Assembly: GCA_016840855.1 (NCBI GenBank)
Contig: JAEORO010000184.1
Span: forward strand, 1 to 53,750
From: Candidatus Thorarchaeota archaeon
GTDB lineage: Archaea; Asgardarchaeota; Thorarchaeia; Thorarchaeales; Thorarchaeaceae
Direction of reading: 5' to 3'
DNA length: 53,750 nucleotides
Shown here: positions 15,841 to 32,223 of the stretch, in pieces
Layout: each line of letters opens with the position of its first letter
How positions within the stretch are numbered: the first letter of the stretch is position 1
Position numbers and translations under genes: made by a program
Notes under the pieces: generated by a model
Databases searched by the model: none
Seen by the model: the letters and a program-made list of their open reading frames with translations, nothing else
What the model was told of the DNA's origin: nothing

Positions 15841-17274
15841 ATGAAGAACTATGATCTCATCGTTATAGGTTCAGGTGCAGGAATGAACATTGCTTCATCT
15901 GCATATGAGCAAGGACTTAGGGTTGCAGTCGTTGAAAGTGGGCCCATGGGAGGTACTTGTTTGAATCGAGGGTGTATACCCACGAAGATTCTCACATATG
16001 TTGCAGACATAATCACGCAAGCTCAGCACCTCAAAGAGCTAGGAGTTGAGTTCAAGATTGAGAAGATTGACTATCCATGGATTATGAGAAGAATGAGAAA
16101 TGAAGTAGATGGGGATAGTAGGGAACAAGGCGAATCAGTGGATGCTGCAGAAGGAATTGACTGGTACAAGGGGACAGGAGCATTTGTAGATGATTATATT
16201 CTGGAGGTTAACGAAGAGAGAATAAAGTCTCCAAACATTATCATTGCAGCTGGTTCGAGGCCTTTGATTCCTAACATAAAAGGTCTCGACAAAGTTGAAT
16301 ATCTCACTAATGATGAAGCACTTCATCTTATGGAACAGCCCAAATCTATGCTTGTTATGGGAGGAGGTTATATTGCAACGGAATTTGGACACTTCTTTTC
16401 AGCGGTGGGCACTGAAGTGACGATAATAGGACGTAACGAATACCTTGTGAAGAATGAAGATTCTGATGTTTCTGAGATTCTTAAGCAGGAACTCTCGAAG
16501 AGGATGCATGTTCACACCAATCATGAGGTCATCGAAGTAAAGGAAGAGAATGGCGAGAAAATAGTGATTGCTTTAAATCGTGAATCTGGAGCCAAGACCG
16601 AGTTCCGAGGTGAAACATTACTTGTTGCGGCAGGTAGACGCTCAAATGCAGACTTGTTCAAACCCGACAAGACAGGTGTCAAAGTTGACAAGAATGGGTG
16701 GATTATTGTAGACGAATACTTCAGGACAAGCAAGAAGGGTATCTGGTCATTTGGAGATGCGATTGGACGCTATCAATTCAGACATGTCGCAAACGATGAG
16801 TCCCAAATTGTTTGGTATAACTTGGTGCAAACTCTAAATGCTCAACACAAGCGTTCCAAACCGGAATTAATGACTATGGATTACCATGCGATTCCTAGAG
16901 CGGTTTTCTCATATCCTCCGATTGCTACTGTAGGGATGACGCTTAATGAAGCTAAGGAATCGGGGCGTAGGTTATTGGTTGGTCAAGCAGATTATTCGAT
17001 CGCTGCAAAAGGATTTGCGATGGGAAATCCCGCTTCATTAGTTCGAGTGATTGCTGATGCAGATAATCGGAAGATTCTCGGAGCAACAATAATAGGTCCA
17101 TATGCGCCAATCTTGATACAAGAGATAATTAACCTCATGTATACTCACGATGGGACGTATCAATCAATGTTTCAAGCAATGCATATACATCCTGCACTCC
17201 CCGAGGTTGTTCAACGCACATTTGGAAGGTTAGCGCCAATTGATGGTGGACATGTTCATCATCATCATCATTGA
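15841..17274 (+). CDS. Pyridine nucleotide-disulfide oxidoreductase (dihydrolipoamide dehydrogenase / mycothione-reductase-like)
   Basis: GSGAG FAD motif, GGTCLNRGCIP redox disulfide, GGGYIATE, HIHPALPEVV His-Glu pair, C-terminal HVHHHHH. Confidence 0.9.
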   Translation: MKNYDLIVIGSGAGMNIASSAYEQGLRVAVVESGPMGGTCLNRGCIPTKILTYVADIITQAQHLKELGVEFKIEKIDYPWIMRRMRNEVDGDSREQGESVDAAEGIDWYKGTGAFVDDYILEVNEERIKSPNIIIAAGSRPLIPNIKGLDKVEYLTNDEALHLMEQPKSMLVMGGGYIATEFGHFFSAVGTEVTIIGRNEYLVKNEDSDVSEILKQELSKRMHVHTNHEVIEVKEENGEKIVIALNRESGAKTEFRGETLLVAAGRRSNADLFKPDKTGVKVDKNGWIIVDEYFRTSKKGIWSFGDAIGRYQFRHVANDESQIVWYNLVQTLNAQHKRSKPELMTMDYHAIPRAVFSYPPIATVGMTLNEAKESGRRLLVGQADYSIAAKGFAMGNPASLVRVIADADNRKILGATIIGPYAPILIQEIINLMYTHDGTYQSMFQAMHIHPALPEVVQRTFGRLAPIDGGHVHHHHH

Positions 17275-17443
17275 GCATAGTAAAAATTCAGACACGAACC
17301 TGGAATATAATACAATTCACTATTAGAACAGGTAAAATCATCAATTCTATCACAATAGTGTGGGTCAGTTCAAGCTTTCGCCACAATTTCAAAGAGGAGC
17401 AGAAGTAATATATCGGTTTGATAATAGAAAATGGTAGTTCGCT

Positions 17444-17576
17444 GGGCGGCCGAGGAGAGGAAGGTAGCTAGCGCGCGTTAGTTAAAACCACATGCAAGAC
17501 GCAATTTAGAGTGCCACCATTCTATACATGGTTTTGAATTCGCTTTCTCCCTCTGGACGTCTTAAGAGGAGGAGCG
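17444..17576 (+). ncRNA. Candidate structured cis-regulatory 5' leader RNA of the giant gene
   Basis: Outer helix 17444-17463/17543-17562, hairpins 17465-17484 and 17507-17524, stem 17484-17490/17529-17535. An alternative hairpin 17541-17576 buries the SD. G-U pairs indicate the + strand. Confidence 0.5.
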
Positions 17577-17577
17577 C

Positions 17578-20500
17578 ATGCATATGAACCGGAGACTGCG
17601 GAGGATACAACTAGTTTCTGTTATTTTTATCACTATGATGCTTGTGGGATTCATCCCGCAAGTTGTTTGGGCTGGCGAAATGATGCAGGAAGAAGAACCA
17701 ATATTTCGAGACCCATTAGCGAAGTATGAGATTGACCCTGTATACATCTTCTACGACCCAACAAATAAATTGTTGAGAACAATTGCAGAGAATGTTCACC
17801 AAGTTCTCGCATTTCGGCTTGAACACATAGAAATGGTGTCAATCTGCGAGTGGACCAAACTTCAATGTGAGTTGCTAGCGGAACCTTGGATCGCTATCTA
17901 CGCACTCAGTTCAGATTTGAGGAGCGTTCATTTCAATGATTTCAACGTTACTTGGAGTGAGTTCTACGGTTTATTGGCTCAACATGAAAATACAGAACAC
18001 ATTGTAGGAATGGGCAACACTTTAAGCTTGGAGCAATATCTTGGTGAAACAGACATAAATATCCGCACAAGCCAAGCAGAACAAGTAGATGGCTTACTTC
18101 TAGCATTCTATGATATGTGGACAATCCATGAAGCTGTTTCAACAAGAGCTCACATTAGCAGTGATTATGAGAATGCTGCAGGAGATCTTCGAACCATTGC
18201 CTTGAAGATTTATGGTGATAACTTTGGTATGTTTTTTGAGAGAGCCATTGAACCAATCGATGCTGTTGGTGAAATTGATGAAAATGACCTAAACAGAAGA
18301 AATGAAGAAATGTGGGAAAGGCATGCCCCAACAATAGAACCAACATTCTATCAAATGAGTGATGAAGGGAAGCTGATAGAGATAGATGAGGAAGAACTAC
18401 CAGAAGACTTCTCACCTGCAATCAAGATAAGCACTGCATCTGAAGTATCATCAAGTGATTATATTCTAGGCGAGATCCCTCTGCTTTCTGCACTAAGAGG
18501 ACCTATTGGCGAGATAATTGATGTTCTTTTGAGCGTCCTGGGTGACTCCGGTTCAACTGTTATTTCAATACCTACGGACCTTATCGAGACCATCAAAGGC
18601 TTGTTTGAAGTTCTTGAACCAATAATTGGAATTGTGAAGGATTTTGATCTCGAGTCTCCTCTAAAATCGATCATCCAAGCCATAGCGAACGAGTTCCCCT
18701 TCATGGCAGAATTCAAGGACTACTTGAATATTATATTGAAAGCTCTCTTCAACTTCAGGGGTGACCTAGAAAGCATTTTAGGAATAGTTGGAGAACTCAT
18801 ATCCGTACTTTTACCGGATTCTGTACCTCAGATTGCTAAGGACTTCATTGGTCAAATCCTTGGTACTGAGAATGGTCTATGGGATATCATCAGTCAAGTT
18901 GTTTCTGAGGGCAAAGGTGTATTCGACACTATATTCAGTTTCTTCACAAAGAATACGCTTCAGGCATTTCTGAACAAGACTCTTGCTGCAACACTCGGAA
19001 TGACTTCTGGGCAGGTTTCAACCCTTCTCCCTCGCGTAATCAGCTTTGTAGAAGCTACACTTGATTTCCTCACAGGCAAGGACTTCGTGAAGTTTGTTGA
19101 AACAATTGGATCTGACCTCTTGGGGTCCATCCTCTCAGTCACGGGTCTGAGCGATGCTGTCGACAAGGTAATGTCTATCGTGAAGATGGGGATGTCTGCC
19201 TTCAAGCTACTAGATGAGTTTGACACAACAACCTTCCTACAGTTTGGAGTCGAGATGCTGAATGAGATAGTTGGACCGTCCAACATCCCAGGTGGTGCTG
19301 AAGACCTCGCAAAGCAAATGATGGCAGTAATCAAAACATTCCAGGAAGGCGCATTTAGTGATATCAATGGTTTCAAGTCTCAGATTTCGAGCATCTTGGA
19401 TTCAGCAACGAGCGGAGTTACCCAGGCCATTAAGGATGTCATACGTGACACTATGACAATGCTCACTGGTTTCTTCAACGGGGCTTTTGACAAGAATCAA
19501 CTACCTGACCTATTCGAGATTGCTGCGAATTTGATTAATGAAGTAATAGGTGGCGGTGACGCAGCGCAAGTCATTGACGCACTGAATAGTGCTGTGAAGC
19601 CACTCATGGGTCTTATCGCCCTTGTTTCTGATAATGATGCTTTGAAGAATATGATCAGCAAAACGGCCAGTAATTTTGCTTCTGAGCTAAGTAATGCCCC
19701 GACCATGATTAAAAATGTTCTATCCTACCTAGATGTTGAGGATGTCATTAGTGGATTACCAGGGTCAGAAGATGTCCTGGATACTGCTGGTCAAATTGTC
19801 GGCGGCATCATCACGATGATCCAAGGCATCAAAGGTCAGTCATTCCAAGGTATCATGCAGTCAGTTTTAATGGCTGCTGGTTCTTTAGTTGGGACATTAC
19901 CGGCATTTGATGATGTCCCAATTGACGCTTTTCTGAAGCTTCTACAATCATTCTTCCCAGATGCTTTTGGTCTTAGTAAAGATGACATGCCTAGCTCTAC
20001 TGAGGTTATCAGCGAGATCCTTGGTTATGCAGAAGGACTTCTCGGAAGTGGTTTCGATGAATCTATGCTCGAGGATACTCTCGAGTTCTTTATGGACATC
20101 AAGGATATCTTCACCAATGGTGTGAAGTGGCTCCTTGGAAAGGTGTTCGATTGGTTGAGTGGGCTCATCAATCCAGTACTTGAAGATATAGAAAGTACAA
20201 TTGAGGGGTTATTTGCAGGTCTTGATGATTTACTTGGATTCTCAGGTAAGTTCCCAATTGGTCTTGGCGACTGGTCCCTCTTTGACTTGGAGTATGCCTT
20301 AGGAATCAAAGCCAATTTCGCTATTGATCTAAACCCGATTTTCGACATGATTGTGAGCATGATTTTCGATGCTCGCGAGGTCTTCTCCACGGACAATATT
20401 GGGGACTTCTTCAAGACAATCCTGAGTTTCTTTGAGATATCTCCCCAGTTTTACGCTGAACTTGGTATTGGTGGTTTTGACACTGAGAAGAACGCTCTCA

Positions 20501-23500
20501 TGAAAACCATGCTGACATCTCTTGGGCTGAAACTCTCCTTCGAAGGTTCCGCGAAATTCGTGGTGAATCTCTTCACCTTTAAAGGAGGTATGTTTGAATG
20601 GGACAATTTCTTCAAGATTGTGGAGTGGGGTCTTCACATAAAGATCCACATTGGGAAAGTGTTCACACTTCTTGACTTCCTAACAGCTGGAGTTGGTGGT
20701 GGCGCATTAAATGCGGTTGCTGAATTTCTGGGTCTTGACATGATTACAATCGAGGTATACTTCGAGATCGCCCTCGACATTGTGAAGAAAGCTGCCACTG
20801 CAATTGCTCCAGAAGTATCTAGTATGACCCTCACCATCATATTCGGGCTCTCGTTGCATATTCCAATAGAACTGATAATAGTAGCCATAACCATAGACGG
20901 GACGCTGGAAATCATACTGACGTTCTTCCAAGACTTTGCAGACCCAGCGCCAATGAAAATAACACTGCGGCTGATATTTACTCTTAAGGTCAAGTTCCGG
21001 TTCCTGTTCTTCAGCGACTCTGCGACATTCTCCTGGGAGCCAGGTGGTCCTTGGGATCTCTCACCCAACAAGGGTGAAACAGAGTATAAGGAGTCCGGAG
21101 TAGGGTTCGATACGGATGGAGACGGTCTAAGCGACGCTTTTGAGAATTCAACGCCGGGATTGGACTTTACTAAGGCTGATACTGATGGTGATGGAGCAAA
21201 CGACAAACTCGAGTTCCAGACGATGAAAACGGACCATACTAATCCTGACAGCGATGGAGACGGTCTCCTTGATGGCCGCGAGTGGGATCTTGGAACCAAT
21301 CCCATGAGACAAGATACTGATTGGGATGATGTGGACGACTACAAAGAAGTGGAAGTCTATGGTACCAACCCACTTGAGCAAGACACTGATGGAGACGGGC
21401 TCACTGATGCATACGAAATATACACCAAACTGGACATCTCAAATGTAACACCAACCGTCACAGAAGTCATCATAGGAGGGGAGTCATTCAATGACCGTAC
21501 TGACCCTCTGAATCCAGATACAGATGGAGACGGGCTTCTTGATGGAGATGAAGGCCCAATGGGTGCATTCTATGGAGACCCTTCACTCTACAATGCTACT
21601 GAAGATTCCAGCTCAGAAAGCGGTTGGGCAATGGACCCGAACCCGCTCTTCTTCAATGGTGGATTCACGCATCCTCTAGATGCAGACACGGATGATGACT
21701 CAGCATTACAATTGTATAATGGTGTTGTCGACTCACAGGCATATCTATTCCTCAAAGATATGAATGACGGCGCAGAAGTCGCAGGGTTCTGGATAATCGT
21801 CTATGATGAGGAAGGCGAGCCTGAGAACAAGCATGTGTTCACCAATCCATGTAACCCTGACACTGATGGAGACACCGGCGTCACTGACCGGACACCTCAA
21901 CCAGGAATGTGGCTCAATAGCGATGGGTATGAACTTGCCCAAACTCCGCCTACTGATCCAACTGACGGTGATTCCGATGATGATGGAATTTTGGATGGTC
22001 TAGAGGGAGTTCTTAATCCTTACAGCAACCATACTAATCCAAATGATCCTGATACCGATGACGATGGACTATTCGACCTCCAAGAGATCCTCCTCGGTTC
22101 TGACCCACGAGAGCAAGACACCGATGGAGATATGATTTCAGACGGTGATGAGTTCTATATCTTCTTCACAAATCCCAATGTCTGGGACTCTGATTTCGAT
22201 GGACTAGGAGACGGTGAAGAAGTCTTCATCTGGCACACAAATCCCCTCACAGACGACAGCGACGCGGATAAGATATACGACGGGGTCGAAGTGCTGATAT
22301 TTGGTTCAGATCCGATGGATGACGATTCTGATAATGATGGATTAACTGACTATGAGGAAATCTACGTCTATTACACAGACCCGTTCGACTATGACACGGA
22401 TGATGACCTCTTGTCCGATGGCGAGGAGATTGAGATCTACAACTGTGACCCACTTTCATGGGATACTGACCGCGACTCAATAACTGAGCCAAACGAGTTA
22501 GGTGAGATGACCTTCCCCCTAAGCGACTATCAAGAGGCTAAAGGCTTCTACATCTACAAGATGGATGAGTCAGGTGTCATGTATCAGGAGTGGGTGTTCA
22601 CAAACATTACACAATCAGATACGGATGAAGATGGTCTAAGTGATGCAATGGAACTGTATCTCGCTTCAGGGAAGATACCCTGGCTTGATCCCATTCCACT
22701 CGACCCTACAAACAAGGACACCGACCATGACTTTATTCCCGATGGAACTGAAATGGCGATAGAGAATGTCTCAGGACTCATTTATCCATATAGAGCAATG
22801 ACCCTTGTCTTCAGGTACAATACATCTCCTGTTGACCGAGACACTGACGATGACTTGCTTATTGATTACCAGGAAGTTCTAGTGTTCAACACAAATCCTG
22901 CAAACAATGACACTGATAATGATGGCATCACCGATTGGTGGGAAACCTGGGTATACAATACCTCAGCGTTGTACAATGACACAGATGGCGATGAGCTCTA
23001 TGATAATGAAGAAACGCTCGTAGAGGTCTGGCCGTATGGGCCATGGCCGCCATCTAATTGGTCCATAGGAATGGGCACTGAGGAGATGTTGGCGTATGCT
23101 GGAGCTTCTTCATTTGCCTTGGCTGAAGAGTCTCCAATATTGCAGTATGTTCCAGCACAGGCCATCTACGGAACTCTAGCGACGGATCCGGACTGTGACG
23201 ATGATTGGTTACCGGATGGTTCAGAAGTCAATTTTTACCATACAGACCCGCTAGATGACGACTCAGATAATGATGGTACGCCAGACACATTGGAGTTTGA
23301 CACAGACTTCGATGGACTTCAAGACGGTCTCGAGTTTCAATTGAAGCTCTACAGAACTGGTGGAGGGATATTGGACCAAGACTCGGATGGTGATGGTGTA
23401 TCTGACGGTGCAGAATACTACATCTACGGAACTGATCCCGCATCGGTGGATACCGATGGAGATGGCTATCCTGATGGTTTGGAGATAGCGATTGGAACCG

Positions 23501-26500
23501 ATCCACTGACCGCAACTACACCAACAGAGTATGAGGAAGCGATAGCAGTATCGCGTGGTGAGGCGTCAATGGACGTCTTGATGCCCTTGGCTGTGGTGAA
23601 CAACGCACAGACTGTCGATGTCAATGTTCTGAATTACACGTCTTTCAAGAGCATGAAGTTCAGGTATAACACAAGTGATGGGTGGAGCACCAACTATACG
23701 ATGACCTACAACCCAGCGACAATGACCTGGGTCTACACAGACATGCAATGGGATGTTGGCACCTACGAACTCCAAGTATTTGCTGTTGACTACAGTGATG
23801 ACGACCACATGGCTGTGAGAATCTTTAAGGTCGCTGCAACTCCGACCTATCCTGAACCTATTAGTCCACTTGTCTATCTTGCAATAGGGCTTGGTTTGGG
23901 AGCTTTTCTAATCCTATTCCTACTCTATGGAATGCCGCTGATAGTCAGGTACATGAAGAAACGAGGGAAAGAGCCTGATGAGAAGCCTCCTGAATTGGCG
24001 GCTCTCACTGAGGATGTTTCAGAGGAGAGTTCTGAGAAAAGCACCAAGAAGAAGACCAGCTCTTCAAAGAAGGAAACAAAGGGTAAGACTCCTAAGAAGA
24101 AATCTGGCAAGGGAAGCAGCAGTCTAGCTTTGATGTTTCTTGCGATGACATTCCTAGGAATGCTATTGGTCAGCTCATTTGGCTATGTTCCAAGCATGCC
24201 AATGAGAGGAATGGAAGATGACACATCATTATACGACGAATATCCTGCAGGATGGGAAGACCTCCCACCTGAACTTCAAGGTCAGATTGCCGAGATGTTC
24301 AATCCCACTGTCCAGAAAATGCCATCAGATCAAGACATCGGGCAAGTGCTTGGCGATAGGGTGAATGATTATGCCTTGAACTATGAGCCGTGGCGTTCAA
24401 AGGCTGCAATACATGCTGTTGCTTACGATGAGGGTACTGGCTTCCTAGCACTTGGTGGTGGCTATCTGTATGACAACCAGATTCATGTGTTTAGACTGAA
24501 TACAGAAACAAAACTATGGGACAAGGTTTGGGACACTGGAGACAGTGTTTTCCAGAGTGATGTCATGGCTCTCGACTTCGGTGACACAGACCTTAACAAC
24601 CTCATTGAGATTGTGGCTGGGTGTTCTGATGGTTATGTATATGTCTTCGAGCAACGGCACCTCTATGACCCATATGCAAACACAGAGAATCAGTTCGACC
24701 ATGTCTGGACATCACCAAAAATGTTCAGAGTCTTTGCATTGAAGGTCGATGATGTTGACCGTGACTACAGACCAGACATTATAGCAGGCGGATGGGATGG
24801 AAAGCTACATCTCTTTGAGTATGACAATCACTCAGGATATCCATTCGTCGAGGAACACTGGATTACCTATGATGAGGTAGCAACACTGAGTGTGGGAGAT
24901 AAAATATACAGTCTTGAAACTGGTGACACGAACTATAATGGTCTTCCAGAGATTATTTGTGGGACTCGAGATGGGACTGTCTATGTCTTTGAGAATGATG
25001 GTGTGACCATCATGATAAATGGTCAGCCGTTCCCATTGATATATGACAACCACTACTATCTCAACTGGACCTCTGAGAATTATACATGGACACCAATTCA
25101 ATCAATGGCTGTAGGAGAACTTGACAACACGCCAGGTGATGAAATTGTCCTGATAGCTCAGGGGCAAGGAGTCTTTACGCTGGAATGGAACCCTACAAAA
25201 CACACCTATGATTATCAAAAGGTATATCGTGACTTCAAGCCTTGGGAAACCTTTGGGTTCTGGGGTCTCGATAATTATGTTGATAGAATAATCTATGCTC
25301 ATAACGTGACTTATCACGACCCAATCAATCCCAGCATCATCGAGAATGAACCGATTCAGTATGTATGGAACGATATTCTCGAGATCTTTGAGCCAGATGC
25401 AAGCGTATATCCGTATAACTCAGGGATGGCGGGGCCAGTTCATCTTACTGCAGGTGCATTAGATGGAAACTTCTCTAATTTCAATGCGTTTCTTGTTGGT
25501 GTTGACAATGCCACTGCAATCTTGGACTTTGGTCTAGATGAAGAAGGAACAGGTGGAGCGAATAGTAATGATGACCTTGTTATCTACTTCAAGTCAGGTA
25601 CTGATTTGGGTCACCTTGGTTCTGACTTCTGGTTCTATATCTCACAGGACGGCACAGACTGGGAACTCATTCCATCAGACAAATTCTATCCAGGAACAGA
25701 TGTTGTTGGTGTCGATGTGGATGATGCTCTCTCGAAAAGAAGGTGGGATTGGTTCCGGTACGCAAAGATTATGGTGAATAACTCAGGGTTCTATCAAATA
25801 AATGGAATTGAACTCACGCAGGTCTATAATACCCTCACTGATGCCTTGAGTGTCACCGTTGGACCTCTGAGGTTGGATGGAATGAGCTATCTCCAAGGTT
25901 TAGATGAACCAATCAAAATCATTGTTGGCAGTGTAACTGGTGAAATCAATGCAATAATGTACAATAGTTCAACATACAAGTATGACGTGATATATGACTC
26001 AGGGGATGACTCGTTCTACACCTTTGGAGCTAATATCTGGGACATGGTCTATGTTGGTAATGAACCCGATGTACCAACATGGAACTGGCAATATGGAATG
26101 CCTTGGACTCCTGACGGTGGAACAACCTATAATTCGTGGAGTTATGCTACTCTAAATCCATGGCTATATGGAGGTGCTACGTTCAATTATTTGATGGGCA
26201 CTAATGAAGGGCAGATCAGAGCATTCACGGTTCCAGATGTTGTACCTGTTGCATCGCCACCTGAACTCGATTTTACTACTCAGGTATACTTGAATAATAT
26301 CAATATCGATTTACCATTGGAGGGATGGCAGAGTGTATCTGTTGAAGCACCATTCTTCATGAACGGTTATGAGTTAGCTAATCAATACAGCGTGTGGCCC
26401 TTCATTGCACTTGGTCTCTACAACCCATCAATTTCTATAGAGAGCATTCCACTGACTACAGAGGAAGATGCACCATCAAGAGCCACAGTTGCCTTCTATT

Positions 26501-29500
26501 ATAGAGACTCTGATACCCAACCATTCAATCATAGAATCAACCTCTATGAAATGGATACGACGGGTGAACTTACAGAGCTCATCAACCTCGCAAAAGCCGA
26601 GCCAAAAATGGACTTTGCTGATTTCGATAGAGATGGTGATCTCGATTTCATCATATCAAACGGATATGTTCAGATGGCTCGAAACATGTGGTATGAGGAT
26701 GAATCGCTTAACTTCACTTTGGTCAGGGGCTACTTTGACGAAATAAATTCGAAGGAAACCAGTAAAATCTGGGGTCAGCCTGAGATGGTGGATATCGACT
26801 CAGATGGAGATTTAGACATTATCCTGAGCTATGCAAATAGCATGGGTGCAACTTGTTGGATTAACGAGGGAACTGCTGAGGATCCAGTCTGGGTTGAAGA
26901 CAAGAAGATAATGTCTAACCCATTACCTGATACCAATATGAAATACCAAAACTTCACCGACATTCGAATTGTACCAAAGCTCGGTGGGTATGTTAGTGGA
27001 TACACACTAGAGAGATGGTACGAGTTCTGGGGGTGGGATATGGACTTCGATTGGACACTTGCTGGTTACCGCGAGTGGAATCAAAGAATAGCATGGGCTG
27101 CTCCAGAATTCGATACAACAGAGAGTTACATCGTTGCCAGCTATCCCAGAGTGGCTCAACTAGACTTTAGCCTCATGAGCGGTGGCTTAGTTGGATATGA
27201 AATCTATAGCAATATTGGATTCCATATTCACGAATCATGGAGCAATGATGCGGACCTTAAAGAGTGGACTCTGTCTATTGCCACTGGAGACATTGATGGC
27301 GATGGAAATGGAGAACTGATCATAGGTGACTACGACAATAATGTCTATGCATTCGAACACCTAACAAAGAACAACTACAAGAGAATGTTCCGTTCCTTCG
27401 ATCTCAATCATACAGAAGTAACAGATGTTTCTCCGTACCTCTATGAGGAATTAGAGGGTATCTCGGGAGACTTCAACAGAAGAATCTGGGACCATGCGAA
27501 GCACCTTGTTGCAGATGTTGATCTTGACCAAGACGGATTGAAAGAGATAATCGTTGCATCGAACCTTCAGATTTACGTATTTGAGGATGCTGGCTTGTAC
27601 GGGGGCGACTTGCTTACCTATCAGTACTCAATCGACTTGCGTGATTCAGCCTGGGCCGATAGAGATGAATTCATCGACCTAGTGACAGAGATTACTGCCA
27701 TGGCGGCGGGAGATGACCTCGATTATAATGGAGAGCTTGAGCTTGCTGTTGCAGCAGGACCATATCTCTTCATCTACAATATCCCGGTTGGTGAGTTTGA
27801 TGGATTTGAAGACAAGGAGTTCTTCGTAACATCTCCAGCATTAGAAGGGAGATACTACTTAGTTGGGAATCCAGAACTTCCTGAGTTCAGGTACTACTAC
27901 ATTAATGCGATAACACTTTGCGATACTGATCAGGATGGCTACAAAGAAGTCCTCATTGGAGGCATCAAGGACACTCGACTAATACGTCAGGATGGCTTTG
28001 TACATCTATATGAATGTCAGGGAGGTACTTTCTACAAAGTGTGGGAAGCTCCAGATGAGGTGACATATTGGAATCCAATTAGTGTATTAACACTTGATGA
28101 TCAGGATATGGATGGAGCTCAGGAGATTGTTATTGGACACACCAATGGTTTTGACCTGTGGGAATGGATAGAAGGTACTGATTCAAAATATCAGAAAGTG
28201 GAGTATGTAACTGCATCGCCAAACTATCCAGTAGTCCCATTAAGGTCAACAGCATATGATACTGGCGATTTTCCAGACTCCGCAACTACAGAACGGTCCA
28301 TCAAGGATATGGCTAAAGGAGTCTATGGAGCGATGGTGAATTGGACTCTCATGGTCTATGAGAACGGTAAGGAGATATGGTACAAGTGGTACTCAGAAGT
28401 CGCTGACGACTGGTTACCTGGTGCTAAGTGGATGGACCTAGCAGGACTTGCCTATACAACTAACTTTAGCACGATTATATCTGAAACACGCCCTAGTGTG
28501 TTAATACCTGCCAATGGAGACATCTACGCCTCATGGGAAGTTTGGGATTCAGGCGGCCAACACTACATTGCATTGTGTTGGGGTGACGTGTCAGCTGGTC
28601 TCTGGCATGGACCAATTCTTTGGCCAGATACCTATGGTATAATACCTATTGGTCAAACATCTTATGACCGATACTATCCGAGCCTCTTTGAATACGACTC
28701 AGGCAATATTGGTATAGTATTCATGTATGATGCGTGGAATGCGTTTACAGGAAATGTGTATGGTCGAGTTGGGGCAGCTTATGCAGCAAAGGATCTATCA
28801 AGTGGGTGGACAAATCGACATCCTGATTTCAATGATAAGACATACTTCCAAGCTCATGATGTTGATGTTGTAGAGCTTAGTGATGGTGACTTTGCTATCG
28901 CTATGTCAGCAGTTTACACTCGATCTTCAAAGGCTGATATCGATGTTTGGGTGGTTGTTGGTAACAGCAACTTCAACTTCACTGGTGCAAATCCACATCA
29001 GGCGACCACATCTTATGACGATGAAATGTTTGTTTCAGTTGAGGAATTGGAATCCGATGAACATGCAATCGTTGTGACATACGAATCCATTGGAGTAGAG
29101 CTCGAAGATAGAATTGGCATGGTTTCTAGCACTACAAAGGGTAGAGAGTGGAGTCTCCAAGAAACACTCAACACGATACCTAGATACATCTCAAGAACAG
29201 AGATGCCGGGAGGATACGTTTACTATTATATTGAGGGGTCCCCATTTGCGATCTATCAGCTTTCAATATTCTCACCCACTGTAGTTGCCAGGGATGGAGC
29301 AGGATTTTTGTATGCAGCTACTTTCAGCTATAAAGTCTACATTCCTCCAGGAGTAATCACAGACAAGGGAATCTGGCTCTGTGTCCACGACATTGTTTAC
29401 GGATTCAATCCACAGTCTGATTGGACATTGAACCATCTGAGAGATGTCATTGACCTAGATGTTGGAGATACTGACTCAGATGGGAGAAGAGAGGTCGTTG

Positions 29501-32223
29501 TTGGCTTTGGAAACCAAGTTGCTGTCTATGAGATGAAGCATTCTACAAACGGAACCGAATTCATGAGTTATGATGAAGCCTGGTTATCAGATCCATTTGA
29601 TAATCCAATTACTGGTGTGAGTGTGTATGATACAAATGGGAATGGTTGGGAAGAGATTGGTATTTCGTCTAAACAGGGTGATGTGTACATCTATGAGTAT
29701 ATTGATCCCTCCGAAGGAGCGATAACTCTTTGGTATTCAGAGCAGTCTTGGACCTACCCAGCAAATGGTGACCAAGACACGTTGATAGATGGTCTCTTGT
29801 ATCCAGACTTGCTTCAAGCTTATGACTTGGATCAGGATGGTAGAGATGAGATAATCTTAGCGTCTTATGACCTAGGCATAATCGAAGCAATCGATGAATA
29901 TGGCATTCAAATCTGGGAAAATGCTGGTAATGCAACCGACGGGTTCTCAAATGTTATCCTGAGCGATCTTAATGTCGATGGCATCCCTGAGATAGTCTGT
30001 ACCTCTAAGGATTCAAACCTGTATATCTTTAATGTAACAACAGGAAATCTAGCGTGGAGCTACATAGATGCTAGTAGCCCGCTAGTTTCAGTGATTTCGG
30101 GTGATCTCACAGGTGATAATTTCCCTGAAATTATCTTCACTGATGAGAGTGGGTACATTCATGTGATTAACTCCACAGGCAATCTCCTAGGTAGCTATTC
30201 CACTGGTGGAACCTACATATTCCGTTTAGCACTCGGGAATTTCACTGACGTTCCAGGAAAGCAGCTTGCCTACGTTGCGTACAATGAAACACTCGTTGTA
30301 ATGGATCCACTTAATGGAACCATCTACTACAAGAGTCCTGATAGCACAGCAACTCCATATGCAACATTTGTACCCTACGACTTCAACAACGATGGGTTTG
30401 AGGACATTGTGTTTGTACGGCAAAAGATACACATACTTGATGTATGCACAGGTATAGTCTATTATAACTCAACGACAGATCTAGGTTGGCCCCATGAAGT
30501 TTACGTTTATGACTTCGATGGTGACAACTCAACAGAGATTCTAACTCTGACATTTGACCAAGGTCTATACCTGGAAGAAGTCGCATCTAGAAGCCTTCAG
30601 TGGCACTACGATCTTGATACAGAGAACCATGTTATTTGGGATCTCGCCTTCGGAAATGCGGGTGGTTCCGGAGCACTTGACATATTTGTTGGTGCATCCG
30701 TATATCTTGGTGATGTAGGGATTGTAGCTGCAATCGATGGGAAGAATGGAATACCATTGTGGTTCAACTTCACTGGTGGTGATCTCGGTGAGATCATCGG
30801 TGTAAAGTTGAATGGTGCAGGCTATGATTCCCTTGTAGCTTGGGATATGCAGAATGAACAACTCATCGCAGTCACGGGCGTTGAACCAACTGAATACATA
30901 GTGACACCAGCTTATGAGAAGCATGACCTCTATTGGCAAATGGATGCTAGCACCGTTTATGGTGTCTGGGTAGACAATATTGATGGAATAGATCTTGACG
31001 AGATTATTGTCGCGGGCCGAAACAAAGATGGGAAGTACAGTCTTGCTCTCGTTGAAGGCTCAACGATGGAGGTTAGATGGAACATCACCTTTGATGTCAA
31101 GATATCTGCTATTCAGATTGGCTACATTAGTGACTGGACAACCAAGGATCTTGCTGTTTGGTCTGGACTACGCGATGTCTATGTCATGGATGGCCTGGAT
31201 GGTAAGGAGCTAATCCACATAAAAGCACCAGACACCCATGAAATCAAAGGCATTCAAGTTGCAGATTTCAGCAGCGCGGCTGGTAATGACTTTGAGGAAA
31301 TTGCTGTCTTGATCCGACAGTGGTCAGGTGGCAGTGAGGTATACATAGAATGGTACGATGAAGCAGGTAATGTTCTATATAACACCAAGGCAGATGGCTT
31401 TACATCGACTGCAACTTCATATTACATGGTAGTTGGTAATTTCAGAGGAGGCAGTACCGCAGATATAGCAATAGGAGCAACTTTGTTCAGTGCTCGTATC
31501 TATAATGGTGGAAATGGAGCTCTCTGGACAACAGTATCACCTTCATCAACCTATGGTCTGGTATCGGGTGATTTCAATGGCGACGGGTCTGGTGACTTAG
31601 CTGTAATGGACTCAGGAGATGACATTCATATGTTCGAGTTCGTTGGCGGTGGCAGCATGACTCTCAATTTCGCCACTGGTGCAGTGAGAGAGTTCTTTGC
31701 TGGAGACCTCTATAATAACGACACTGTAGATGAACTCGTTGTCAATCTTGAAAGATATGGCGCAATTGCGTATAGCTTTGCTGGGACAGAGGTCTGGAGA
31801 TACAATGCTCCATTGGTGTTGGGAGGCAAAGACACTCACATCATTCTCGAGGACATGAATGCTGATGGATGGACTGACCTTGTTCTAACCAACAAGGAAT
31901 ACATCAACGTTGTTGATGGACCTTCTGCTCGACTTATGTGGCATTACTGGAAGGATGACCTCAGAAGCAATTTTGACCCAAGAGTTGGATACATCTATAG
32001 TTCATCAGGTAGGGATGTGCTATGTTATGGCTACAATCTGGTTTACGTTGTAGCTCATGATATTACTGCTCCACCAGTACCTCTTGCTGCATTTCTCTAT
32101 CAGCCAAATGCAGTATATGTACCTCTTGATTTAGCTCTCTTTCTTGGGCTTGTCTGCTTCCAGCTTCTAGTGGTTGGTATTCCATACTCGAAGATGGTTT
32201 GGATACGGAGAAGAAGAAAATAG
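17578..32223 (+). CDS. Giant (4881 aa) cell-surface protein with DxDxDG Ca-binding (TSP3-like) repeats and FG-GAP/VCBS beta-propeller repeats, four hydrophobic segments
   Basis: Uninterrupted 14.6 kb ORF with strong SD (GGAGGAG); signal peptide ending VWA; internal TMs at ~aa 2097-2123 and ~2183-2204; C-terminal TM plus RRRRK. Start may be ATG 17584. Confidence 0.9.
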   Translation: MHMNRRLRRIQLVSVIFITMMLVGFIPQVVWAGEMMQEEEPIFRDPLAKYEIDPVYIFYDPTNKLLRTIAENVHQVLAFRLEHIEMVSICEWTKLQCELLAEPWIAIYALSSDLRSVHFNDFNVTWSEFYGLLAQHENTEHIVGMGNTLSLEQYLGETDINIRTSQAEQVDGLLLAFYDMWTIHEAVSTRAHISSDYENAAGDLRTIALKIYGDNFGMFFERAIEPIDAVGEIDENDLNRRNEEMWERHAPTIEPTFYQMSDEGKLIEIDEEELPEDFSPAIKISTASEVSSSDYILGEIPLLSALRGPIGEIIDVLLSVLGDSGSTVISIPTDLIETIKGLFEVLEPIIGIVKDFDLESPLKSIIQAIANEFPFMAEFKDYLNIILKALFNFRGDLESILGIVGELISVLLPDSVPQIAKDFIGQILGTENGLWDIISQVVSEGKGVFDTIFSFFTKNTLQAFLNKTLAATLGMTSGQVSTLLPRVISFVEATLDFLTGKDFVKFVETIGSDLLGSILSVTGLSDAVDKVMSIVKMGMSAFKLLDEFDTTTFLQFGVEMLNEIVGPSNIPGGAEDLAKQMMAVIKTFQEGAFSDINGFKSQISSILDSATSGVTQAIKDVIRDTMTMLTGFFNGAFDKNQLPDLFEIAANLINEVIGGGDAAQVIDALNSAVKPLMGLIALVSDNDALKNMISKTASNFASELSNAPTMIKNVLSYLDVEDVISGLPGSEDVLDTAGQIVGGIITMIQGIKGQSFQGIMQSVLMAAGSLVGTLPAFDDVPIDAFLKLLQSFFPDAFGLSKDDMPSSTEVISEILGYAEGLLGSGFDESMLEDTLEFFMDIKDIFTNGVKWLLGKVFDWLSGLINPVLEDIESTIEGLFAGLDDLLGFSGKFPIGLGDWSLFDLEYALGIKANFAIDLNPIFDMIVSMIFDAREVFSTDNIGDFFKTILSFFEISPQFYAELGIGGFDTEKNALMKTMLTSLGLKLSFEGSAKFVVNLFTFKGGMFEWDNFFKIVEWGLHIKIHIGKVFTLLDFLTAGVGGGALNAVAEFLGLDMITIEVYFEIALDIVKKAATAIAPEVSSMTLTIIFGLSLHIPIELIIVAITIDGTLEIILTFFQDFADPAPMKITLRLIFTLKVKFRFLFFSDSATFSWEPGGPWDLSPNKGETEYKESGVGFDTDGDGLSDAFENSTPGLDFTKADTDGDGANDKLEFQTMKTDHTNPDSDGDGLLDGREWDLGTNPMRQDTDWDDVDDYKEVEVYGTNPLEQDTDGDGLTDAYEIYTKLDISNVTPTVTEVIIGGESFNDRTDPLNPDTDGDGLLDGDEGPMGAFYGDPSLYNATEDSSSESGWAMDPNPLFFNGGFTHPLDADTDDDSALQLYNGVVDSQAYLFLKDMNDGAEVAGFWIIVYDEEGEPENKHVFTNPCNPDTDGDTGVTDRTPQPGMWLNSDGYELAQTPPTDPTDGDSDDDGILDGLEGVLNPYSNHTNPNDPDTDDDGLFDLQEILLGSDPREQDTDGDMISDGDEFYIFFTNPNVWDSDFDGLGDGEEVFIWHTNPLTDDSDADKIYDGVEVLIFGSDPMDDDSDNDGLTDYEEIYVYYTDPFDYDTDDDLLSDGEEIEIYNCDPLSWDTDRDSITEPNELGEMTFPLSDYQEAKGFYIYKMDESGVMYQEWVFTNITQSDTDEDGLSDAMELYLASGKIPWLDPIPLDPTNKDTDHDFIPDGTEMAIENVSGLIYPYRAMTLVFRYNTSPVDRDTDDDLLIDYQEVLVFNTNPANNDTDNDGITDWWETWVYNTSALYNDTDGDELYDNEETLVEVWPYGPWPPSNWSIGMGTEEMLAYAGASSFALAEESPILQYVPAQAIYGTLATDPDCDDDWLPDGSEVNFYHTDPLDDDSDNDGTPDTLEFDTDFDGLQDGLEFQLKLYRTGGGILDQDSDGDGVSDGAEYYIYGTDPASVDTDGDGYPDGLEIAIGTDPLTATTPTEYEEAIAVSRGEASMDVLMPLAVVNNAQTVDVNVLNYTSFKSMKFRYNTSDGWSTNYTMTYNPATMTWVYTDMQWDVGTYELQVFAVDYSDDDHMAVRIFKVAATPTYPEPISPLVYLAIGLGLGAFLILFLLYGMPLIVRYMKKRGKEPDEKPPELAALTEDVSEESSEKSTKKKTSSSKKETKGKTPKKKSGKGSSSLALMFLAMTFLGMLLVSSFGYVPSMPMRGMEDDTSLYDEYPAGWEDLPPELQGQIAEMFNPTVQKMPSDQDIGQVLGDRVNDYALNYEPWRSKAAIHAVAYDEGTGFLALGGGYLYDNQIHVFRLNTETKLWDKVWDTGDSVFQSDVMALDFGDTDLNNLIEIVAGCSDGYVYVFEQRHLYDPYANTENQFDHVWTSPKMFRVFALKVDDVDRDYRPDIIAGGWDGKLHLFEYDNHSGYPFVEEHWITYDEVATLSVGDKIYSLETGDTNYNGLPEIICGTRDGTVYVFENDGVTIMINGQPFPLIYDNHYYLNWTSENYTWTPIQSMAVGELDNTPGDEIVLIAQGQGVFTLEWNPTKHTYDYQKVYRDFKPWETFGFWGLDNYVDRIIYAHNVTYHDPINPSIIENEPIQYVWNDILEIFEPDASVYPYNSGMAGPVHLTAGALDGNFSNFNAFLVGVDNATAILDFGLDEEGTGGANSNDDLVIYFKSGTDLGHLGSDFWFYISQDGTDWELIPSDKFYPGTDVVGVDVDDALSKRRWDWFRYAKIMVNNSGFYQINGIELTQVYNTLTDALSVTVGPLRLDGMSYLQGLDEPIKIIVGSVTGEINAIMYNSSTYKYDVIYDSGDDSFYTFGANIWDMVYVGNEPDVPTWNWQYGMPWTPDGGTTYNSWSYATLNPWLYGGATFNYLMGTNEGQIRAFTVPDVVPVASPPELDFTTQVYLNNINIDLPLEGWQSVSVEAPFFMNGYELANQYSVWPFIALGLYNPSISIESIPLTTEEDAPSRATVAFYYRDSDTQPFNHRINLYEMDTTGELTELINLAKAEPKMDFADFDRDGDLDFIISNGYVQMARNMWYEDESLNFTLVRGYFDEINSKETSKIWGQPEMVDIDSDGDLDIILSYANSMGATCWINEGTAEDPVWVEDKKIMSNPLPDTNMKYQNFTDIRIVPKLGGYVSGYTLERWYEFWGWDMDFDWTLAGYREWNQRIAWAAPEFDTTESYIVASYPRVAQLDFSLMSGGLVGYEIYSNIGFHIHESWSNDADLKEWTLSIATGDIDGDGNGELIIGDYDNNVYAFEHLTKNNYKRMFRSFDLNHTEVTDVSPYLYEELEGISGDFNRRIWDHAKHLVADVDLDQDGLKEIIVASNLQIYVFEDAGLYGGDLLTYQYSIDLRDSAWADRDEFIDLVTEITAMAAGDDLDYNGELELAVAAGPYLFIYNIPVGEFDGFEDKEFFVTSPALEGRYYLVGNPELPEFRYYYINAITLCDTDQDGYKEVLIGGIKDTRLIRQDGFVHLYECQGGTFYKVWEAPDEVTYWNPISVLTLDDQDMDGAQEIVIGHTNGFDLWEWIEGTDSKYQKVEYVTASPNYPVVPLRSTAYDTGDFPDSATTERSIKDMAKGVYGAMVNWTLMVYENGKEIWYKWYSEVADDWLPGAKWMDLAGLAYTTNFSTIISETRPSVLIPANGDIYASWEVWDSGGQHYIALCWGDVSAGLWHGPILWPDTYGIIPIGQTSYDRYYPSLFEYDSGNIGIVFMYDAWNAFTGNVYGRVGAAYAAKDLSSGWTNRHPDFNDKTYFQAHDVDVVELSDGDFAIAMSAVYTRSSKADIDVWVVVGNSNFNFTGANPHQATTSYDDEMFVSVEELESDEHAIVVTYESIGVELEDRIGMVSSTTKGREWSLQETLNTIPRYISRTEMPGGYVYYYIEGSPFAIYQLSIFSPTVVARDGAGFLYAATFSYKVYIPPGVITDKGIWLCVHDIVYGFNPQSDWTLNHLRDVIDLDVGDTDSDGRREVVVGFGNQVAVYEMKHSTNGTEFMSYDEAWLSDPFDNPITGVSVYDTNGNGWEEIGISSKQGDVYIYEYIDPSEGAITLWYSEQSWTYPANGDQDTLIDGLLYPDLLQAYDLDQDGRDEIILASYDLGIIEAIDEYGIQIWENAGNATDGFSNVILSDLNVDGIPEIVCTSKDSNLYIFNVTTGNLAWSYIDASSPLVSVISGDLTGDNFPEIIFTDESGYIHVINSTGNLLGSYSTGGTYIFRLALGNFTDVPGKQLAYVAYNETLVVMDPLNGTIYYKSPDSTATPYATFVPYDFNNDGFEDIVFVRQKIHILDVCTGIVYYNSTTDLGWPHEVYVYDFDGDNSTEILTLTFDQGLYLEEVASRSLQWHYDLDTENHVIWDLAFGNAGGSGALDIFVGASVYLGDVGIVAAIDGKNGIPLWFNFTGGDLGEIIGVKLNGAGYDSLVAWDMQNEQLIAVTGVEPTEYIVTPAYEKHDLYWQMDASTVYGVWVDNIDGIDLDEIIVAGRNKDGKYSLALVEGSTMEVRWNITFDVKISAIQIGYISDWTTKDLAVWSGLRDVYVMDGLDGKELIHIKAPDTHEIKGIQVADFSSAAGNDFEEIAVLIRQWSGGSEVYIEWYDEAGNVLYNTKADGFTSTATSYYMVVGNFRGGSTADIAIGATLFSARIYNGGNGALWTTVSPSSTYGLVSGDFNGDGSGDLAVMDSGDDIHMFEFVGGGSMTLNFATGAVREFFAGDLYNNDTVDELVVNLERYGAIAYSFAGTEVWRYNAPLVLGGKDTHIILEDMNADGWTDLVLTNKEYINVVDGPSARLMWHYWKDDLRSNFDPRVGYIYSSSGRDVLCYGYNLVYVVAHDITAPPVPLAAFLYQPNAVYVPLDLALFLGLVCFQLLVVGIPYSKMVWIRRRRK
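21109..23505 (+). repeat. About 25 intragenic D-[TS]-D-x-D-G-x-x-D-x-x-E...T-[ND]-P calcium-binding repeats
   Basis: DTDGDGLSD, DSDGDGLLD, DTDGDGLTD, DSDDDGILD, DSDNDGLTD, DTDGDGYPD etc.; core period about 19-20 aa with variable insertions. Confidence 0.9.
24400..32050 (+). repeat. Intragenic FG-GAP / VCBS-type propeller blade repeats
   Basis: GDTDLNNLIEIVAG, DVDRDYRPDIIAG, ADFDRDGDLDFII, GDIDGDGNGELIIG, DLDQDGLKEIIVA, DTNGNGWEEIGI, DFNNDGFEDIVF, GDFNGDGSGDLAV, DMNADGWTDLVL and more. Confidence 0.85.

Follow-up and report, generated by a model that had tools for sequence, protein, structure and literature searches.

A predicted gene-specific structured RNA leader with a co-varying long-range helix in one family of Asgard archaea

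Judged by comparison with its relatives, the leader in front of the giant gene of a Candidatus Thorarchaeota archaeon (Asgardarchaeota; Thorarchaeales; Thorarchaeaceae) is a genuine structured RNA that is specific to this gene and to one archaeal family and had not been catalogued before. The DNA analysed, called the window here, comprises 53,750 nucleotides (nt) of contig JAEORO010000184.1 from assembly GCA_016840855.1; it is contig C144 of an assembly with 259 contigs, 3.36 Mb and 92% completeness, and the genome is referred to as G000 in comparisons. The leader lies on the plus strand in the intergenic stretch 17275-17577, between a pyridine-nucleotide disulphide oxidoreductase gene (15841-17274) and an open reading frame (ORF) of 4881 amino acids (aa; 17578-32223). 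Its central element is a predicted long-range helix in which nt 8-27 of the transcript would pair with the 20 nt just upstream of the Shine-Dalgarno (SD) sequence. A preliminary description, made from the letters of the window alone, had proposed at 17404-17586 a riboswitch-like leader with two mutually exclusive folds, one leaving the SD free (ON) and one burying it (OFF). Our analysis shows that the ON helix is conserved and that its two strands co-vary. The reading that we favour, at about even odds, is a two-state switch of translation with three elements, the anti-anti-SD, the anti-SD and the SD.

The comparison is based on relatives of the giant gene. The N-terminal 500 aa of its product find a match in 52 of the 87 genomes of the order and in 17 of 17 genera. 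We collected 46 non-identical upstream regions and kept the 35 that carry the 5' motif of the leader (31 recovered by a search allowing at most 3 mismatches, 4 by eye). The 11 regions left out were L037, which is without the N-terminus, L041 and L063, which are cut by contig ends, L039 and L042, which are orthologues without the motif, and L045, L046, L051, L058, L059 and L060, which have paralogue-type leaders. Five leaders from one further genome locus and a metagenome scan (14 loci returned) were added, resulting in 40 leaders from 17 clades. The 5' block of the leader and its architecture are kept in 13 of the 17 genera, where the proteins are just 38-50% identical and the flanks have wholly diverged. 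Paralogue-type copies (L045, L046, L195, L198, L058, L059) have leaders without the 5' motif; even so, a purine tract close to the 5' end is matched there by a complementary pyrimidine tract ahead of the SD, as ACGAGGAGAGCAAGAAA is by UUUCUUGGUUCUCACUCGU in L058.

The range of the element is narrow. A covariance model built from alignment A1 with 16 pairs gave 38 matches in 37 of the 87 genomes of the order, distributed over 13 of 17 genera, with a single match per genome except for two in G065. Nearly all of them (37 of 38) adjoin a giant-gene match and for the remaining one a contig end is 66 nt away. When the phylum was sampled evenly, the model matched 10 of 26 genomes of the same family, and no match at E <= 0.01 was obtained in 124 genomes of 26 other families. 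A theme of metabolite or transport genes was not found, all model matches preceding one gene family or lying at a contig end. Additionally, Rfam 15 (4227 families) has no match in the window leader at E <= 10 and none in 12 homologous loci at E <= 1, which agrees with the preliminary description in that no recognised riboswitch class is present.

The conservation of the helix is carried by an alignment-free swap test, in which each leader's own 5' and 3' windows were hybridised in silico (RNAduplex) and compared with partners swapped between clades under 20,000 clade-level permutations. In the window the 5' arm of the helix occupies 17444-17463 (segments LR1 and LR2) and the 3' arm 17543-17562, both on the plus strand; within the 3' arm, 17543-17554 is a pyrimidine tract, the anti-SD candidate, and 17552-17562 pairs with the 5' end. 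The full arms bind their own partners with -29.2 kcal/mol and swapped ones with -23.6 kcal/mol, and 0 of 20,000 permutations were as good (17 clades). For LR1 (nt 6-20 with the 22 nt preceding the SD) the values are -11.8 and -9.6 kcal/mol, with 1 of 20,000 permutations as good, and for LR2 (purine against pyrimidine tract) 103 of 20,000 were as good. Earlier runs on 16 clades agree with these results. A composition control with reversed partners was flat for LR1 (z -0.8) and for LR2 (z -0.5). Compensatory pairs can also be read directly from the leaders: GCGUCUA/UAGACGC in L014, ACCAGAU/AUCUGGU in L056, GGUG/CACC in L040, CUG/CAG in L038 and a variant, AUACGUC/GACGUUAU, in L005. The register is preserved as well, since 66-67% of the long-range cells pair in place versus at most 57% when the strands are slid. 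The helix encloses a middle domain (17464-17542) that varies in length and sequence between clades and for which no consistent consensus structure was obtained. A GCCACCA-like motif (17513-17519 in the window) recurs by eye in many clades, not in all, and is found also in L039 and L042, which lack the 5' motif.

Folding of the single sequence reproduces the helix. The minimum free energy (MFE) and centroid structures calculated by RNAfold for 17404-17586 and for 17437-17589 all contain the pairing of 17444-17463 with 17543-17562 together with three inner hairpins. Thus the ON fold of the preliminary description is recovered, and its helix is conserved with co-varying arms; the inner hairpins, although present in the MFE structure of the window, are not conserved even in the closest relatives, where the one at 17465-17484 is replaced by a CUUGCA/UGCAAG hairpin. 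The plus strand folds with -47.1 kcal/mol for 17404-17586 (z -0.18, 76 of 200 dinucleotide shuffles as good) and with -44.5 kcal/mol for 17437-17589 (z -0.84, 40 of 200), and the minus strand with -36.4 (z +0.11) and -34.7 kcal/mol (z +0.33), respectively. The plus-strand preference that had been read from G-U pairs therefore amounts to about 10 kcal/mol (-44.5 versus -34.7 kcal/mol), and the plus strand is the more stable one in 32 of the 40 leaders. The z-score of the MFE is negative in 36 of the 40.

The transcript that carries this helix appears to start immediately before it. An archaeal promoter, which consists of a purine-rich stretch resembling the B recognition element (BRE) followed by a TATA box (TAATATAT, 17406-17413), occupies 17400-17413 on the plus strand and is visible in the alignment of 40 leaders. 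In archaea the TATA box is canonically centred about 26-27 nt upstream of the transcription start. In our alignment, anchored at +1, TTATAT is found at -29 to -24 (centre near -26/-27) with the consensus base in 26-31 of 40 leaders per position, an A/G-rich stretch is found at -36 to -32, positions -22 to -1 are unconserved, and strong conservation sets in from +1; both the spacing and the preceding purine-rich stretch are those of an archaeal BRE/TATA promoter. We infer a transcript start near 17437, a purine 24 nt past the last TATA base, because conservation begins there in all 40 leaders and because the TATA box stands at -29 to -24. The proposal that a TATA-like box at about 17406 would set the start just before the structure is consistent with this alignment. 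In BLAST comparisons of the window with its closest relatives, similarity starts at 17385-17400, and the genes further upstream differ. With this start the untranslated leader would be about 147 nt long.

The leader begins with the conserved 5' block RUUCGCUGGGCGRCCGA (17437-17453), which comprises the 5' strands of a local helix, P1 (17440-17445), and of LR1 (17444-17453). Columns T3, C4, G5, C6, T7, G10 and C14 of the block are at least 90% conserved, and TTCGCTGGGC within it is exact in 21 of the 40 leaders. No second copy of the motif exists in G000, where matches with 3 mismatches are at the control level (5 versus 4), and an exact-pattern scan of genome contigs with the 15-nt motif gave, among the matches listed, chance matches in GC-rich bacteria. 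In one genus (L020, L021, L022, L026, L027, L030, L061, L193) a second copy of CGCUGG(G/U)G is observed about 65 nt 3' of the first, and one CCAGCG segment can serve as partner to either copy, forming the local 5' hairpin with one of them and the long-range fold with the other. The 5' block overlaps an SD-like purine tract (17452-17464), the anti-anti-SD candidate, which one of the folds displays as the loop of the 5' hairpin and the other pairs to the pyrimidine tract; 36 of the 40 leaders have GGAG or GAGG within nt 15-36. A tract complementary to the SD lies 10-25 nt before it, CTCC or CCTC being present between SD-36 and SD-9 in 29 of 40.

The SD region itself extends over 17564-17576 with a GGAGG core at 17568-17572; GGAG is at least 90% conserved and a GGAGG ribosome site is present in all 40 leaders. 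The first ATG of the ORF (17578) stands 5 nt from GGAGG and is restricted to part of the genus. The ATG at 17584-17586, from which the protein begins MNRRL, is conserved throughout the family in the alignment of leaders and N-termini and is probably the true start codon, with a spacing of 11 nt to GGAGG. In G000, GGAGG is most frequent at 7-10 nt ahead of an ATG, and a tail extends to 11-12 nt; before the ATGs of long ORFs it is counted 29-43 times per position in this interval against a background of about 4, and only 241 ORF starts have it. Therefore, a minority of the genes in this genome initiate translation through an SD, and the SD of the leader is credible because its 11-nt spacing falls in the genome-wide tail. 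The 3' end of 16S rRNA was not found in the assembly, and the general ribosomal anti-SD sequence is applied here.

The fold that competes with the long-range helix combines a local 5' hairpin, H5, with a hairpin that pairs the anti-SD tract with the SD, H3. H5 (17440-17473, plus strand) is composed of P1 (17440-17445/17468-17473), where CGCUGG pairs with a CCAGCG-like segment, and P2 (17449-17451/17463-17465), where GCGRCC pairs with a GGUCGC-like segment, and it exposes the purine tract in its loop; the local fold of nt 1-66 has -14.8 kcal/mol. On alignment A4, 69.5% of the H5 cells pair versus at most 48% when slid, and 17 of 500 shuffles reach this value. P2 and H3 share bases with the long-range helix and are thus mutually exclusive with it; P1 overlaps it by three bases only and could coexist with it as a pseudoknot. 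The H3 duplex of G000 has -14.1 kcal/mol, which ranks 2nd among the 241 GGAGG-led starts (ORFs of at least 150 aa), and in 31 of the 40 leaders this potential is at or beyond the 5th percentile of the genome background. On alignment A3, 72.5% of the H3 cells pair, a share attained by 0 of 500 shuffles, and 15 cells have changed on both sides (6 of 500). When folding is constrained, the OFF pairing of the window, in which the pyrimidine tract 17541-17554 meets the purine run 17565-17576, has -40.2 kcal/mol compared to -44.5 kcal/mol for ON. Over all leaders the difference ON minus OFF averages -0.4 kcal/mol (standard deviation 5.9), ON is the better fold in 21 of 40, and in 18 of 40 the two lie within 3 kcal/mol; the MFE structures of the homologues are the long-range fold or the 5' hairpin with the SD hairpin in roughly equal numbers. 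The SD-burying fold that had been proposed is therefore a legitimate alternative, with a conserved SD-complementary tract and nearly the same energy as ON. The hairpin is conserved as a potential, and its support from covariation is weak.

A number of results must be weighed against this interpretation. The set of leaders was selected by the 5' motif, and all counts hold for motif-bearing leaders only. The reversed-partner control of the full arms was not flat (z -3.3), and therefore a part of the full-arm signal is due to purine/pyrimidine composition. The inner part of the helix, LR3, gave no swap signal. Column-wise pairing of the long-range helix on the MAFFT alignment A1 is 67.5% compared to 66.7% for shuffled columns (94 of 500 as high), on alignment A5, fitted by the covariance model, it is 66.1% compared to 65.4% (115 of 500), and in MAFFT alignments of the 5'-terminal 62 nt and the 3'-terminal 52 nt RNAalifold placed 0 pairs. 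We think that clade-specific bulges and register shifts defeat a model of single columns. The covariation in homologous leaders that the preliminary description had asked for was accordingly seen by the alignment-free swap tests (0 and 1 of 20,000) and was not seen by RNAalifold or the column-wise tests. As to the competing fold, the covariation score of H5 is not significant (67 of 500), nor are the swap tests of P1 and P2; slid H3 registers (+1, -2, +3) pair nearly as well as the proper one (about 71%); the swap test of H3 is weak, with 111 to 495 of 20,000 permutations as good (495 in the 17-clade run) and a composition control at z -1.8; and the anti-SD:SD potential is weak in 9 of 40 leaders. 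Finally, the energy of the window leader is no better than that of its shuffles, and only 15 of the 40 leaders have z < -1.64 (mean -1.42). The preliminary description had itself named folding energy no better than shuffled sequence as grounds against its proposal, and with z of -0.18 and -0.84 this is what was found. The fold of the window is ordinary on its own; therefore, the case rests on the comparison with relatives.

If the leader acts as a two-state switch, its operation could be pictured as follows. Of the two strands of the long-range helix, the 3' one includes a CCUCC-like tract that is complementary to the SD, and the 5' one a purine tract that resembles the SD. In the ON state the long-range helix would hold the anti-SD away and leave the SD open; in the OFF state the 5' end would fold into its own local hairpin, which is the only candidate for capturing the anti-anti-SD, and the freed anti-SD could pair with the SD. 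Some signal, be it a ligand, a protein, the ribosome, temperature or ions, would shift the balance, and both states would presumably be populated in the cell. Two of the elements by which such control can be recognised were found: an SD-complementary tract near the SD (29 of 40 leaders by motif, 31 of 40 by energy, 2nd of 241 in G000), and an upstream SD-like tract able to pair with it (36 of 40, LR2 with 103 of 20,000, and present in the MFE structure of G000). The same logic is used by the thiM thiamine pyrophosphate (TPP) riboswitch of Escherichia coli, in which an upstream tract pairs with the SD-complementary tract and leaves the SD open, and capture of this upstream tract lets the anti-SD close the SD (PMC2018614). 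The two are not related by sequence, Rfam family or gene context. Unlike thiM, the leader has its anti-anti-SD at the extreme 5' end and a helix spanning about 100 nt, its host is an archaeon, and it precedes a giant surface-protein gene instead of a metabolic one. One could go further and regard the leader as a signal-sensing riboswitch, the first class specific to Asgard archaea, in which a small ligand or an ion, bound by the middle domain together with the conserved 5' block, decides whether the 5' end folds locally or pairs with the anti-SD, and so gates translation of a giant integrin-like, calcium-repeat surface protein. We consider this extension unlikely, and we have not filed the element as a riboswitch because no aptamer or ligand was identified.

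The main rival reading is that the long-range helix is the sole functional fold and that the leader is static, its purpose being to keep the SD and the start codon permanently single-stranded; this is possible, though we doubt it. Such a leader might also, and again doubtfully, bury the 5' end and protect the 14.6-kb mRNA from decay that depends on this end, the complementarity of anti-SD and SD then being a by-product of composition. It fits a static leader well that strong co-variation is confined to the long-range helix, H3, P1 and P2 being weak or unsupported in the swap tests, that the inferred 5' end has just 3-7 nt left unpaired, and that the SD core of G000 is predicted to be unpaired with a probability of 0.62. 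However, any complementary pair of strands would serve this purpose, and the SD-like character of the 5' tract (36 of 40) and the SD-complementary character of the 3' tract are left unexplained. Moreover, in 31 of the 40 leaders the anti-SD:SD potential ranks among the strongest 5% of the genome background, and for 19 of 40 the calculated energies favour the SD-paired fold.

The purine tract could serve the ribosome directly: as a standby site or decoy, it would bind the small subunit in the hairpin loop and hand it over to the proper SD whenever the anti-SD hairpin opens transiently, so that control would come from ribosome availability and not from a ligand. The tract contains GGAG or GAGG in 36 of 40 leaders, it is located in the loop of a local hairpin, and SD-led initiation is used in the genome (GGAGG peak 7-10 nt before ATG). 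Nevertheless, the tract has no start codon downstream at the distance expected of an SD, and LR1, where co-variation is strongest, is not required by such a model, which we hold to be improbable. A role of the 5' block 17438-17453 mainly as DNA, as an operator or an initially transcribed promoter element over +1 with RNA pairing being secondary, appears to be similarly improbable. It would account for the conservation of TCGCT and its neighbours, which at 90% or more exceeds the needs of a helix, and positions +2 to +17, which the block occupies, are a common site of archaeal repressor action. Yet bases 8-17 co-vary with a partner 100 nt downstream, the frequent G-U pairs and the difference in energy between the strands indicate RNA, and neither clear dyad symmetry nor a conserved neighbouring regulator gene was found, the upstream genes being different. 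These two readings need not exclude a switch or a static leader. That the complementarity arose by chance in a purine/pyrimidine-rich spacer and has no function is scarcely credible: the ordinary single-sequence z-scores and the non-significant column-wise tests would agree with it, but the swap tests are significant and the 5' block and architecture persist in 13 of 17 genera at 38-50% protein identity with diverged flanks. The comparative data thus already disfavour chance.

The guanine-plus-cytosine (GC) content climbs from 0.30-0.35 at 17250-17400 to 0.46-0.48 at 17400-17600, as expected from the GC-rich island in AT-rich intergenic DNA that had been noticed before, and every stretch quoted in the preliminary description lies where it had been placed. 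The leader holds no plus-strand ORF of at least 20 aa, by which a coding explanation was ruled out. A scan for intrinsic terminators and sigma-70 promoters found no terminator-like site in the leader, with models that are bacterial and a host that is an archaeon. Upstream in the window an archaea-specific threonyl-tRNA synthetase editing domain is encoded, and the C-terminus of the neighbouring oxidoreductase is a natural histidine run (GGHVHHHHH before the stop, 17254-17274).

The 4881-aa ORF (17578-32223, plus strand) has an N-terminus resembling a signal peptide, bacterial TSP3, FG-GAP and beta-propeller repeats, and a membrane anchor at the C-terminus. Its N-terminal 1150 aa match no Pfam family, and a protein-cluster atlas gave only sub-threshold hypothetical clusters for them. 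The ORF resembles two genes fused in frame at 23875-24183 (aa 2100-2202), where a helix similar to a membrane anchor (aa 2100-2118) is followed by a lysine-rich linker and a second segment similar to a signal peptide (aa 2181-2202). Orthologous open frames are mostly about 2100-2260 aa long, and frames of 4716-4901 aa are found in four genomes of the genus.

Leaders that control the SD are of a known kind, to which this one would belong, and switching is plausible for it. RNA thermometers such as ROSE and fourU sequester the SD in a hairpin and need no competing upstream strand; the leader resembles them in that an imperfect hairpin with G-U pairs can, in the models, occlude the SD, and differs in having no Rfam match, its energies being modelled at 37 C only. 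The ompA and aprE leaders of long-lived bacterial mRNAs form short, local stabiliser hairpins at the 5' terminus, without a pair of SD mimic and anti-SD. Similarly to them, the archaeal leader would be helical almost from the beginning of a long mRNA, with pairing from nt 4 (P1) or nt 8 (LR1) if the transcript starts at 17437. To our knowledge, very few structured cis-regulatory RNAs have been found in archaea. Among the riboswitch classes of Rfam, TPP and fluoride (crcB) occur there, and the leader shares with them the nature of a cis-acting structured mRNA leader and has no match to any Rfam family.

Among the papers listed by text searches, as far as titles and abstracts go, no such element is described for Asgard archaea. 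The leader is a compact test object of 153 nt, with a defined promoter, a long-range helix that co-varies in the comparison, and a clear hypothesis of ON and OFF states. If it proves to be static, it would still be a new family-specific mRNA architecture and a possible annotation marker for the giant gene.

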